Below the pieces are notes generated by a model that did no database searches, was not told the DNA's origin, and saw only the letters and a list, made by a program, of their open reading frames with translations. From IMG/VR virus record IMGVR_UViG_2711768012_000016: a stretch of 4,861 nucleotides of DNA; one strand, written 5' to 3'. Both the position numbers and the translations under genes were made by a program. The DNA is from a virus (Duplodnaviria; Heunggongvirae; Uroviricota; Caudoviricetes). This document shows positions 1-4,861 of this stretch, piece after piece; positions within the stretch are counted from its first letter, which is position 1, and each line of letters opens with the position of its first letter.

Positions 1-79
1 GCTTTGAACTCTTTAGAGTAACGTTGGGTTTTTCTGCTCATTATTAGCTCCTTCTGATGCCATTCTATTTCAGGAAGGA

Positions 80-782
80 GTGTCCGTTAAACTCAGGCTA
101 CCTCAGGTTATTCGCTTCTGGGCATGGGCGGATCAACAAATGATAGACGGTAATGCAGATTGTAACGCTCGCGGCGTTACAAAAAGTGCAATAGATCGCA
201 TCACTTTTATGTCTGGTTTTGCTGATGCGTTAATTCAGGTTGGATGGCTGGTCGAAAATGACGGAGGGCTTTCTCTACCTAACTTTGAACGTCATAACGG
301 AAAAAGCTCTAAAAAAAACGGGCGGTTACAAACGAGCGAGTAACAAAAATACGCGAACTGAAACGAAAAGGTAACGCTGCCAGCGTTACACAAACGGATC
401 AAAAAGCGTTACCAGAGGAAGAGGAAGAGGAAGATCTAAATACTGATCTCCCCCTCGCCAAAAACGAGCGTCTAAAAAATTCGAGCCGGAGGCTATTGAG
501 CTGCCCGATTGGTTGCCGGAAACACTCTGGCATGAGTGGGTCCGGTTCAGACAGGCATTGCGAAAACCGATTCGAACGGAGCAGGGCGCTAACGGGGCGA
601 TACGGGAACTGGAAAAATTCCGTCAGCAGGGTTTTACACCTGAGCAGGTGATTCGACACAGCATCGCCAATGAATACCAGGGCCTGTTCGCGCCGAAAGG
701 TGTTCGGCCTGAGACGTTGCTCCGACAGGTTAACACCGTCTCGTTGCCGGACAGTGCGATCCCGCCAGGCTTCAGGGGGTAA
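80..782 (+). CDS. Phage replication initiation protein with DnaT-like C-terminal domain; frame broken twice at homopolymer runs (possibly a pseudogene, more likely assembly indels)
   Basis: Three collinear open segments on the + strand. Segment 1 (80-343, GTG start after AGGA at 72-75) encodes the N-terminal domain. Segment 2 (next frame, open from 313) encodes a charged linker ...KRAVTNERVTKIRELKRKGNAASVTQTDQKALPEEEEEEDLNTDLPLAKNERLKN. Segment 3 (third frame, open from 447, ORF-track 513-782) encodes ...KKFEPEAIELPDWLPETLWHEW...NTVSLPDSAIPPGFRG. That C-terminus closely matches my recollection of the E. coli DnaT C-terminus (PDW ... NTVSEPDSQIPPGFRG). Frame switches coincide with A8 at 311-318 and one of C5 450-454, A5 460-464 or A6 474-479. 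The stop TAA at 780-782 lies 6 nt before the DnaC-like ATG at 789. Confidence 0.6.
161..181. repeat. 19-bp palindrome GTAACGC-N5-GCGTTAC, copy 1 (putative initiator-binding site or ori iteron)
   Basis: Read directly: tGTAACGCtcgcgGCGTTACa, with arms at 162-168 and 174-180. The same 7+7 arms recur at 371-389. It lies inside the initiator N-terminal coding region. Confidence 0.5.
370..413. repeat. 19-bp palindrome GTAACGC-N5-GCGTTAC, copy 2, plus a downstream half-site (putative ori/iteron cluster)
   Basis: gGTAACGCtgccaGCGTTACa at 370-390; arms 371-377 and 383-389 form a perfect 9-bp inverted repeat GTAACGCTG/CAGCGTTAC. An extra half-site AGCGTTAC sits at 405-412. It is embedded in the A-rich linker-coding part of the initiator gene, next to a (GAGGAA)x3 tandem at 415-432. 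Confidence 0.5.
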
Positions 783-2677: not shown

Positions 2678-3364
2678 ATGACCCCAATAAACATATTTAT
2701 GACAGTTGCTGATTTCAAACGGCCCAAATTGGAGCTCCCAAACGGGGCAAACAAACTACTACTGCACTCTTGCTGTGCTCCATGTTCCGGTGAGGTGATG
2801 GAGGCGCTTCAGGCCTCGGGAATCGACTACACCATCTTTTTCTACAACCCGAACATTCATCCTCAGAAAGAGTATTTAATTCGTAAGGATGAGAATATTC
2901 GCTTTGCTGAACAACACGGCGTGCCGTTTATTGATGCTGATTACGACACAGACAACTGGTTTGAACGAGCCAAAGGAATGGAATGGGAGCCCGAACGAGG
3001 GATCCGTTGCACCATGTGTTTTGACATGCGTTTTGAGCGGACAGCGCTGTACGCCGCTGAAAATGGTTTCAGTGTGATCAGCAGTTCACTGGGCATTTCA
3101 CGCTGGAAAAATATGCAGCAGGTTAACGACTGTGGGCGGCGAGCCGTCGCGCATTATCCGGGCATGGTGTACTGGGATTATAACTGGCGCAAGCAGGGCG
3201 GCTCGTCCCGTATGATTGAAATCAGCAAGCGCGAAAAATTCTATCAGCAGGAATATTGTGGCTGTGTGTATTCTCTGCGCGATACCAATCTACACCGCAA
3301 ATCTCAGGGACGCCCTCTTATCAAAATTGGTCAACTCCACTACGGTAAAGAAGAGAAGGAGTGA
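2678..3364 (+). CDS. queH: QueH-type epoxyqueuosine reductase-like protein (DUF208 family Fe-S enzyme), 228 aa
   Basis: Intact ORF carrying the motifs I associate with DUF208/QueH: [11 protein letters not shown] near the N-terminus, [31 protein letters not shown], and EYCGCVYS near the C-terminus. Cysteines at 32, 33, 36, 111, 114, 152, 194 and 196 fit a 4Fe-4S cluster plus additional metal-site arrangement. Stop TGA at 3362-3364. No SD before ATG 2678. Confidence 0.7.
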
Positions 3365-3385
3365 TTTTATGGGGCACCTTTCTGA

Positions 3386-3415
3386 TTGATTTCATATTGG
3401 CGAGGTAAGTAGAAT
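3386..3415 (+). promoter_or_regulatory. Candidate sigma70 promoter (TTGATT-N18-TAGAAT) reading into the second masked stretch
   Basis: TTGATT at 3386-3391 and TAGAAT at 3410-3415. The same two hexamers recur at 3981-4008. An 8-bp stem (3434-3441 with 3463-3470) lies just downstream in the predicted 5' leader. Confidence 0.3.
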
Positions 3416-3893
3416 GACTGCGGGTGCTTGAGGCTATCTGCTTCAGGCATGAACACCAAAAGGCAGATAGAGAAAAGCCCCAGTTAACATTACGCGTCCG
3501 GCAAGACGCNNNNNNNNNNNNNNNNNNNNNNNNNNNNNNNNNNNNNNNNNNNNNNNNNNNNNNNNNNNNNNNNNNNNNNNNNNNNNNNNNNNNNNNNNNN
3601 NNNNNNNNNNNNNNNNNNNNNNNNNNNNNNNNNNNNNNNNNNNNNNNNNNNNNNNNNNNNNNNNNNNNNNNNNNNNNNNNNNNNNNNNNNNNNNNNNNNN
3701 NNNNNNNNNNNNNNNNNNNNNNNNNNNNNNNNNNNNNNNNNNNNNNNNNNNNNNNNNNNNNNNNNNNNNNNNNNNNNNNNNNNNNNNNNNNNNNNNNNNN
3801 NNNNNNNNNNNNNNNNNNNNNNNNNNNNNNNNNNNNNNNNNNNNNNNNNNNNNNNNNNNNNNNNNNNNNNNNNNNNNNNNNNNNNNNNNNNNN

Positions 3894-3917
3894 CATCCTC
3901 AACGCACCCGCACTTAA
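3894..3917 (+). CDS. 3' end of an unknown + strand CDS whose body lies in the N-masked stretch (...HPQRTRT*)
   Basis: On leaving the mask, one + frame is open and stops at TAA 3915-3917, immediately at the foot of the terminator hairpin. The start and the protein are not visible. Another frame stops at 3932-3934 inside the hairpin loop, which is less consistent. Confidence 0.25.
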   Translation, partial: HPQRTRT

Positions 3918-3967
3918 CCCGCCCATCGCTGTGATCTCTCAGCGTTTCGGCGGGTTTTTTGTTGTTT
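3916..3967 (+). terminator. Rho-independent terminator (GC stem with nested inner hairpin, then T-rich tract)
   Basis: Outer stem 3916-3923 AACCCGCC pairs with 3949-3956 GGCGGGTT. An inner stem, 3927-3931 CGCTG with 3940-3944 CAGCG, sits in the loop. It is followed by TTTTTGTTGTTTATTT. The T-tract is on the + strand, so it terminates rightward transcription. Confidence 0.5.
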
Positions 3968-3980
3968 ATTTCCGGTGAAT

Positions 3981-4008
3981 TTGATTCGCGCACCTTCGCA
4001 GATAGAAT
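3981..4008 (+). promoter_or_regulatory. Candidate sigma70 promoter (TTGATT-N16-TAGAAT) for the downstream operon
   Basis: TTGATT at 3981-3986, 16-bp spacer, TAGAAT at 4003-4008. It sits directly after the terminator and about 80 nt before ATG 4090. Confidence 0.35.
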
Positions 4009-4089
4009 CGACTCACTTAAGTAGCGCGCAGGGAGAAGAGGGATGGACCCCGAACAGGGGAGAGCTATTTATCTGGAAGGATTCTGAAG

Positions 4090-4377
4090 ATGAAAATCGA
4101 AGAATTGCGTGAAATTTTTAGTGAAAATGGCCTCTATGCTGTGCGCGTTGAGAATGGAGCGATTGTCAGCCATTGCCGCATTAGATGTTTGCAATCTCAA
4201 CAAAGGAAGAGCGGTGCTGTGTTATTTTATTTTTGTAATGGACTTCTGACGGACGGTTTTATTTTGCGTGAGGACGAATTTGTCACATCATTACGGGTTT
4301 TGAAAGAGATTGGTTTTAAGGCTGGTTTTCTGCTTTTGCTGAAGAATAAACTCATCTACAATCTTGAGCAGGATTGA
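4090..4377 (+). CDS. Hypothetical small protein, 95 aa, in an AT-rich segment
   Basis: ATG 4090 has SD GGAAGGA at 4075-4081 (8-nt spacer); stop TGA at 4375-4377. The product MKIEELREIFSENGLYAVRVENG... is not recognised. Local GC is visibly lower than in flanking genes, and the many T-runs make the C-terminal frame uncertain given the homopolymer problem seen elsewhere. Confidence 0.4.
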   Translation: MKIEELREIFSENGLYAVRVENGAIVSHCRIRCLQSQQRKSGAVLFYFCNGLLTDGFILREDEFVTSLRVLKEIGFKAGFLLLLKNKLIYNLEQD

Positions 4378-4415: not shown

Positions 4416-4769
4416 ATGGCACATATACAACTGGTCAAACAAACCTCTTCCGGATTACTTCTCCCGGCGACGCCGGAGAGTTGCGATTTTCTGCATCAAA
4501 TCAAAATAGGTGAGTGGATACACGCAGACTTTAAGCGTGTGTGTAACTACGCATTCCACAAGCGTTTTTTCAAACTCCTGCAACTGGGTTTCGATTACTG
4601 GACTCCGGTCGGTGGGGCGATCACGCCTCGCGAACGAAAACTGGTGTCCGGTTTCGTTGATTACCTGTGTGAATCAGTAGGCCGGGAACATACGCCAGCT
4701 CTGAGCGAAGCCGCAGAGCAATTGAGGTGTACTGGCAATAGCGGACACTACCATTTGTTCTTTTTTTAA
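4416..4769 (+). CDS. Phage nin-region-type hypothetical protein (tentatively DUF1367-like), probably truncated by a frame break at a T7 run
   Basis: ATG 4416 has SD GGAG at 4405-4408 (7-nt spacer). The product MAHIQLVKQTSSGLLLPATPESCDFLHQIKIGEWIHADFKRVCNYAFHKRFFKLLQLGFDYW... resembles, from memory, a conserved lambdoid prophage family that neighbours ninG. The ORF ends ...HYHLFFF* at T7 (4761-4767). The adjacent frame is open from 4769 to the window end (SSHLMIFFPEGCRGDIPQTRVTTLTIVENLN...). The ORF-track TTG start at 4374 has no SD. Confidence 0.5.
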   Translation: MAHIQLVKQTSSGLLLPATPESCDFLHQIKIGEWIHADFKRVCNYAFHKRFFKLLQLGFDYWTPVGGAITPRERKLVSGFVDYLCESVGREHTPALSEAAEQLRCTGNSGHYHLFFF

Positions 4770-4861
4770 GCAGCCATCTGATGATATTTTTCCCTGAAGG
4801 CTGCCGGGGAGATATTCCCCAGACGAGAGTGACGACGCTGACGATTGTAGAAAATCTCAAT

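Follow-up and report, generated by a model that had tools for sequence, protein, structure and literature searches.

A probable hokW/hokD-type hok/mok/sok toxin-antitoxin cassette spanning a masked stretch of a Rac-like prophage fragment

The region at positions 3386–3960 of the analysed DNA very probably forms one type I toxin-antitoxin cassette, a hok/mok/sok locus of hokW/hokD type. The DNA (hereafter the window) is a stretch of 4,861 nucleotides from the IMG/VR virus record IMGVR_UViG_2711768012_000016 and represents a piece of a Rac-like lambdoid prophage. Judged by its sequence, the cassette would count as an already known element, because it is a close relative of the characterised hokW-sokW, being near-identical to the hokW-sokW studied in Shiga-toxin phages. 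An earlier note on the same letters had proposed that a run of masked bases hides a transcription unit complete in itself, encoding either a protein or an RNA. Such a unit is indeed delimited by the promoter and the terminator listed in Table 1, and the sequence of an unmasked relative suggests that both kinds of product, a small toxin and an antisense RNA, are encoded there. The visible edges of the mask sufficed to identify its contents, through the elements tac, ucb and fbi together with a partial Rfam match.

Table 1 Features of the putative hok/mok/sok cassette in the window (positions are those of the window).
Feature	Position	Strand	Description and basis
hok/mok mRNA promoter	3386–3415	+	-35 TTGATT at 3386–3391, 18-nt spacer, -10 TAGAAT at 3410–3415
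tac (mRNA 5′ end)	3422–3433	+	GGGUGCUUGAGG; alternative partners are fbi, ucb and the stretch directly downstream
5′ hairpin of the hok mRNA leader	3434–3470	+	8-bp stem CTATCTGC/GCAGATAG (3434–3441 and 3463–3470), core of 10 predicted bp
sok, 3′ part (37 nt visible)	3473–3509	-	Predicted by projection of sokW; 5′ part and promoter would lie inside the mask
ucb (anti-Shine-Dalgarno box)	3475–3481	+	AAGCCCC; from the folds, the RF01794 consensus structure and the definitions in PMC9841398
Mask (384 N)	3510–3893		Contents inferred from L007 2514–2804 (291 bp)
Predicted contents of the mask			5′ half and promoter of sok (- strand), mok Shine-Dalgarno sequence, mok ORF, hok ORF, GC-rich 3′-UTR hairpin
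fbi (fold-back inhibitory element)	3897–3909	+	CCUCAAcGCACCC; complement of tac, one base being bulged
Intrinsic terminator of the hok mRNA	3916–3960	+	8-bp outer stem, inner 5-bp stem, T6

The sigma70-like promoter described in the earlier note was recovered by our scan, with nine of 12 positions matching the consensus (TTGATT-N18-TAGAAT). The scan of positions 3300–4100 returned two sites, compared with 0.5 ± 0.8 in shuffled sequences. In an alignment of homologues (A1), five of six diverse sequences carried the -10 sequence GTAGAAT and the sixth GTAAAAT, and the -35 region was not conserved. Transcription probably starts near G3422; this position, 7 nt after the -10 element, is also where the Rfam model RF01794 begins.

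The predicted 5′ end of the mRNA, the translational activator element tac, was invariant in all 48 distinct homologues, and its partner depended on the molecule folded. It paired with fbi in the minimum free energy (MFE) fold of the full mRNA, with ucb in the fold of a 62-nt leader segment (3422–3483) and in the Rfam consensus, and with the stretch directly downstream in the truncated mRNA. A 5′ end able to pair with a box close by or, alternatively, with the distant 3′ end is the hallmark of hok mRNAs. The fold of the 62-nt segment showed a 10-bp hairpin inside a stem of seven pairs (3422–3429/3475–3481; GGG.UGCUU with AAGCCCC), with a free energy of -25.8 kcal/mol and a z-score of -4.1, and none of 200 shuffled sequences was as stable. 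The 8-bp stem-loop reported previously is therefore real, as the core of this hairpin, for which one compensatory pair was found among homologues (A-U in 34 and G-C in 11; alignment A2, columns 15/47). Instead of being a plain leader hairpin, it appears to be part of the tac/ucb conformational switch of the hok mRNA. In the open form, ucb pairs with tac; in the closed form, the partner of the mok Shine-Dalgarno sequence CUGAGGC is the overlapping GCC.CAG (3477–3483).

Beyond the mask, the bases preceding the terminator, previously read as coding, correspond to the conserved fbi element. The pairing of tac with fbi can be assessed entirely on visible bases, and comprises 12 pairs and one bulge (RNAduplex, -21.5 kcal/mol). 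An fbi partner was found in 53 of 54 distinct homologues, and the bulged base was the only position that varied within it. All 12 pairs were retained in 48 of 48 homologues, a conservation that offers no covariation proof because no pair varies. Downstream of fbi, folding upheld the strong intrinsic terminator proposed from position 3916 onward: AACCCGCC (3916–3923) pairs with GGCGGGUU (3949–3956), followed by T6 (3955–3960), with a free energy of -25.1 and a z-score of -4.7. A simple terminator scan missed this structure only because its loop is longer than 8 nt. In the Rac homologue, an identical outer stem closes a loop of 4 nt (alignment A1).

An Rfam search of the whole window matched positions 3422–3481 to positions 1–58 of RF01794, the hok/sok leader (named “sok antitoxin, CssrC”), with 53.9 bits and an E-value of 2.4e-10. 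This was the sole Rfam match in the window at E ≤ 1, with no riboswitch or other RNA family elsewhere. The score lies under the gathering score of 59 bits solely because the mask cuts the match; an unmasked relative (L001) matched the whole model with 117 bits. This match lies on the + strand, where it extends from the 5′ end of the hok mRNA to the hok AUG. Therefore, RF01794 as built describes the sense leader targeted by Sok, rather than the antisense strand.

The window contains two runs of N, at 1216–1677 (462 N) and, as already described, at 3510–3893 (384 N). The unmasked relative L007 (GCA_026020055.1) was retrieved via contigs encoding the downstream 95-aa Rem-like protein. It was 100% identical to the window at every visible base, in three segments, and the identity extended across the private junction at which the DUF1367 gene meets IS600. 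A pattern for this junction had no match in the GTDB genome contigs. We examined 28 loci with flanks exactly matching those of the second mask (20 IMG/VR contigs from a pattern search with 291-nt spacing, and eight NCBI loci). The hidden stretch measured 291 bp in all of them, L007 included; 22 were identical and six had one SNP. The second mask is thus 93 positions longer than its counterpart (384 versus 291), and the first is 144 positions longer (462 versus 318); both differences are multiples of three. Since the toxin, mok and most of sok are masked, and the mask exceeds the stretch of every relative by 93 positions, the bases of 3510–3893 are not read from the window and are presumed to be those of L007. 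Lengths of N-runs in such windows are untrustworthy as gene sizes, and the gene size previously derived from the mask length is superseded by the 291 bp of the relatives. The long ORFs listed across the N-runs (184, 201 and 167 aa) arise from the translation of N and were disregarded.

In L007, the sole + strand ORF of at least 20 aa in the hidden stretch was the 70-codon mok/hok frame. The mok ORF (L007 2539–2751) has GAGG 11 nt 5′ of its ATG and is in frame with the hok ORF of 51 codons (L007 2596–2751), which was present in all 28 loci with exact flanks. Hok, as encoded by this surrogate sequence, matched PF01848 with 81.1 bits (cut-off 22). It also matched phrog_251 (“MokW-like host killing”) with 112.5 bits, a family in the PHROGs category “moron, auxiliary metabolic gene and host takeover”. 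Mok shared 67 of 70 residues with the annotated MokW, and Hok shared 50 of 51 residues with HokW. NCBIfam models gave sub-threshold matches only (Hok subfamily, 55 bits with a cut-off of 73; HokA, 39 bits with a cut-off of 89). Therefore, the name “HokD” assigned by PGAP was not reproduced by a model cut-off. The hok stop codon (L007 2749–2751) is followed by another 53 nt of hidden sequence and lies 75 nt 5′ of the TAA found at 3915–3917 of the window (L007 2826–2828). This TAA, taken in the earlier note for the stop of the hidden gene, is located between fbi and the terminator and is incidental, because hok ends upstream in another frame.

The antisense gene was located by comparison with the annotated sokW of phage 933W (L013 1574–1644, - strand). 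Its projection through alignment A1 gave a 71-nt stretch on the - strand of L007 (2477–2547). The predicted Sok has a single-stranded 5′ tail of 15 nt over the mok AUG, a long hairpin over the mok Shine-Dalgarno sequence, and a U tail, with a folding free energy of -28.6 and a z-score of -4.7. A candidate sok promoter was found on the - strand of L007, consisting of -35 TTGCCT, a 17-nt spacer and -10 TAACCT. The TAACCT stretch is identical in L007 and 933W, and it coincides with the bases replaced by the primer used to make a promoter-less sokW (PMC8621323). The predicted Sok would thus have a promoter of its own and be complementary to the mok initiation region. A patch of 19 nt at the start of mok, the pairing partner of the free 5′ tail of Sok, was hypervariable, with 10 variants among 48 cassettes in nearly invariant surroundings.

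These results bear on other readings of the masked bases. The earlier note favoured an ordinary moron gene of up to about 150 aa, with an ORF running through the mask and ending at the TAA. The promoter, the terminator and the TAA are all present where it placed them. However, no ORF reaches the TAA in the identical relative L007, the predicted products (a 51-aa toxin and the 70-codon mok) end inside the mask, and the bases between mask and TAA include the conserved non-coding fbi. On this surrogate sequence the detail fails the refuting condition that the note itself had set, and such a gene therefore deserves next to no credence. A second possibility is that the source cassette is a variant or disrupted copy, in which the 93 surplus positions are a real insertion, a duplication or a small extra element. 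The excess length of both masks and its divisibility by three would suit this explanation, as would the visible decay of the prophage, which has IS600 at both ends of the window and a frameshift in its O-like gene. Insertion-type disruption has inactivated many of the hok loci found in chromosomes. Nevertheless, the same flanks at a 384-nt spacing gave no match in IMG/VR, GTDB genomes or JGI metagenomes, whereas all 20 IMG/VR contigs and eight NCBI loci showed the 291-bp spacing. L007 moreover matches all visible bases, and two private insertions placed exactly under the masks would be a coincidence. It is far more likely that the N-runs were padded or are of arbitrary length, and we regard a variant or disrupted copy as improbable. 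Two more speculative ideas are likewise unlikely. In the first, the 93 positions would be a real insertion that gives a structurally new hok variant. In the second, the variants of the 19-nt patch would be specificity groups that do not neutralise one another, and this copy might then fix the IS600-bracketed, QueH-carrying fragment in the chromosome. If true, such groups would let several hok/sok copies coexist in one genome.

Returning to the reading of the masked region as an ordinary hok/mok/sok cassette, the mRNA was reconstructed from L007 (2426–2873, 448 nt) and folded with an MFE of -191 kcal/mol and a z-score of -8.0. In this full-length fold, the 5′ end was closed onto fbi, the mok Shine-Dalgarno sequence was paired with ucb, and the terminator formed at the end. 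For a consensus fold, 80 related loci were taken from viral contigs and reduced to 48 distinct cassettes. The consensus retained the closure between the 5′ and 3′ ends, and the 3′-UTR hairpin showed three compensatory pairs. The MFE fold of the 3′-truncated mRNA did not adopt the open tac/ucb form, and its mok Shine-Dalgarno sequence was still paired. Therefore, thermodynamic prediction alone does not demonstrate a switch between open and closed forms. The truncated mRNA instead formed a metastable 5′ hairpin between tac and the stretch directly downstream, resembling the metastable co-transcriptional structure described for plasmid R1 (PMC9841398).

The mechanism proposed here is taken from the R1 model (PMC9841398) and from experiments on hokW (PMC8621323). 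The R1 hok mRNA is known to be activated by 3′ processing, and fbi closes and silences the full-length mRNA (PMC9841398). By analogy, the + strand promoter would produce an mRNA, about 448 nt long should the masked sequence equal that of L007, and its 5′ end, tac, would be locked to fbi near the 3′ end. In this closed form, ucb would sequester the mok ribosome-binding site, and the mRNA would be stable and silent. Slow trimming from the 3′ end would strip the terminator and fbi, tac would re-pair with ucb, and the mok ribosome-binding site would be freed. Translation of the 70-codon mok would then permit translation of the in-frame 51-aa Hok, which would insert in the inner membrane, so that the cell would be killed or lysed. 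The short-lived 71-nt Sok, transcribed from its own - strand promoter, would pair with the mok start region, block translation and mark the duplex for RNase III. Hok would thus be made only once sok transcription stops.

The closest characterised system is hokW-mokW-sokW of 933W and of Sakai prophage Sp5 (VT2-Sakai), whose cassette DNA is 91.1% identical to that studied here. The 933W locus has the same layout, with sok antisense over the mok start and with mok and hok in one frame. Its tac, fbi and sok -10 sequences are identical to ours, and both cassettes reside in lambdoid prophages. Their places differ. The present cassette is flanked by queH and rem, in the early-right part of a Rac-like prophage, whereas that of 933W is near the genome end, beside a ygiW-like gene. 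In addition, seven of the 19 positions of the mok-start patch differ from 933W, the loop of the 3′-UTR hairpin is longer in this copy, and a clear intrinsic terminator is present, while none was seen by eye in the aligned 933W stretch past fbi. Hok differs from HokW by one residue (R50 instead of E50), and Mok differs by three residues in all. HokW is toxic and membrane-localised, and sokW neutralises it, partly via RNase III and Hfq (PMC8621323). Mitomycin C eliminates sokW and induces HokW by a route that depends on RecA (PMC8621323). Given this homology to a tested system, the Hok encoded here would be expected to be toxic as well. The archetype of the family is hok/sok (parB) of R1, a plasmid-borne system for post-segregational killing. 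Its parts, namely the Hok/Gef peptide, the mok frame, the cis-antisense Sok, tac/fbi and ucb (PMC9841398), have counterparts here, with tac, fbi, ucb, Sok and mok of the R1 type all found, partly on the surrogate sequence. The proteins themselves resemble each other only remotely, HokW being 44% identical to R1 Hok (PMC8621323).

The gene order of the window is an O-like remnant, a partly masked DnaC/YdaV-like gene, DUF977, an ORF of 118 aa, queH, hok/sok, rem and DUF1367. IS600 ends are found at positions 1–104 and 4724–4861 in the same orientation. Two relatives, L006 and L007, have the right-hand IS600 insertion in common with the window, and what comes after this IS600 in them is a fragment of an integrase gene together with an ABC-transporter gene of the host. 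Neither showed the Q, tRNA, holin and lysozyme genes of the intact relative L001. The cassette itself occurs in unrelated neighbourhoods, including 933W, Rac, plasmids of 90–130 kb and a phage P1 record, and homology between these contexts begins at the -10 element and ends just past fbi. Both flanking genes were present in two of 1,833 matching records, with hok between them both times, and queH joined directly to rem was found in none of the 1,833. The description of the unit as insulated and moron-like was broadly right, considering its own promoter and terminator, its PHROGs category, its location in a lambdoid prophage remnant and the diversity of its neighbourhoods.

The likeliest role of this copy is the selfish stabilisation of its DNA segment, or killing triggered by stress or phage, rather than help in phage release. 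An apparently intact killer cassette in a dead fragment bracketed by IS600 fits the persistence of the module by addiction after phage decay. The same system may instead have another main role, either in lysis and phage release at induction or in abortive-infection defence against lytic phages, which we consider possible and clearly the less probable view. Deletion of hokW-sokW halved the release of Sp5 after mitomycin C (PMC8621323), and the cassette of that prophage is the 91% identical one compared above. However, L006 and L007, with the IS600 insertion of the window, have lost the lysis genes. Without Q, holin and lysozyme genes, these relatives would have no phage left to release, so that a lysis-assisting role is hardly applicable here. 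Such a role is still conceivable in intact relatives such as L001. As for defence, the exclusion of T4 by R1 hok/sok is cited in PMC8621323. On the other hand, a PADLOC scan of Hok, Mok and Rem matched no model, and consequently the locus does not count among the catalogued defence systems. The earlier suggestion of a defence or anti-defence gene thus corresponds to one among several documented roles of hok/sok. We prefer segment stabilisation or triggered killing as the function of this cassette.

At least 594 viral contigs of IMG/VR encode a relative of the cassette, and 4,264 of 5,426 complete E. coli genomes contain hok-type matches. The importance of this copy beyond its correct annotation is therefore slight, as it is a copy of a very common element. 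E. coli genomes with the flanks of the window annotate the gene between queH and the next ORF as HokD, and RefSeq names the gene at the identical locus “type I toxin-antitoxin system toxin HokD”. The hokD (relF) gene of K-12, located in the Qin prophage, is not known to carry the regulatory elements upstream, mok and sok among them. This copy has all of them. In a DNA search of plasmids, at least 80% of the cassette was covered in 254 records, and among those listed all were hokD-type copies. The many further plasmid records with a Hok-family or DUF5431 annotation shared only about 47 nt with it, around the Shine-Dalgarno sequence and the start codon of hok.

In an alignment of 48 distinct hok cassettes (A2), variability along the entire mRNA peaked in a 19-nt patch around the start of mok, the leader frame overlapping hok. 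This patch (alignment columns 107-125, corresponding to positions 2532-2550 of the public relative L007 and lying under the mask in the window) occurred in 10 variants and reached 0.63 bit per column, compared with 0.04-0.09 to each side. It pairs with the free 5′ tail of the antisense RNA Sok, and its variability may be a mark of allele-specific Sok recognition. The Rfam model RF01794, although named “sok antitoxin”, was aligned to the plus strand, from the 5′ end of the hok mRNA to the hok AUG in the unmasked relative L001, and over 3422-3481 of the same strand in the window, where the mask cuts the match short. Therefore, RF01794 models the sense leader and not the antisense RNA strand.

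Features located in the window and in the unmasked relative L001
Feature	Sequence	Coordinates	Strand or orientation	Family and score
RF01794 match	L001	3823-3998	+	
RF01794 match	window	3422-3481	+	
Epoxyqueuosine reductase QueH gene, prophage-borne	window	2699-3364		PF02677, 220 bits
IS600 terminus	window	1-104	same as copy at 4724-4861	IS3 family
IS600 terminus	window	4724-4861	same as copy at 1-104	IS3 family

Both masked stretches were longer than the sequence found at the same place in L007, which agrees with the window at every visible base. The run at 1216-1677 comprises 462 N against 318 bp, and the run at 3510-3893, within the cassette, comprises 384 N against 291 bp; the respective surpluses of 144 and 93 are each divisible by 3. 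No contig with a 384-nt spacing between the exact flanks was found in three public collections.

On its upstream side the cassette adjoins the queH gene. Many hundreds of E. coli genomes contain matches to the end of queH, and where this region is matched best, the gene is followed by a hok gene. At the other end, the cassette terminator (3916-3960) has the same outer stem as that of the phage Rac homologue (L002; CCCGC-TTCG-GCGGG), but contains about 24 additional loop nucleotides, which fold into an inner 5-bp stem. Shortly past this terminator, and 82 nt upstream of a rem-like ORF (4090-4377), lies a second promoter-like site (TTGATT-N16-TAGAAT, 3981-4008) with the same hexamers as the hok promoter.

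Since each end of the window is an IS600 terminus, two IS600 copies bracket a 4.6-kb piece of prophage. The right copy interrupts a DUF1367 (irsA-like) gene, and the left copy truncates an O-like replication gene. The remnant of the latter (80-782) is split into two separate ORFs (80-343 and 513-782), and its alignment to L001 contains two gaps, suggesting that the O-like gene is probably a frameshifted pseudogene.
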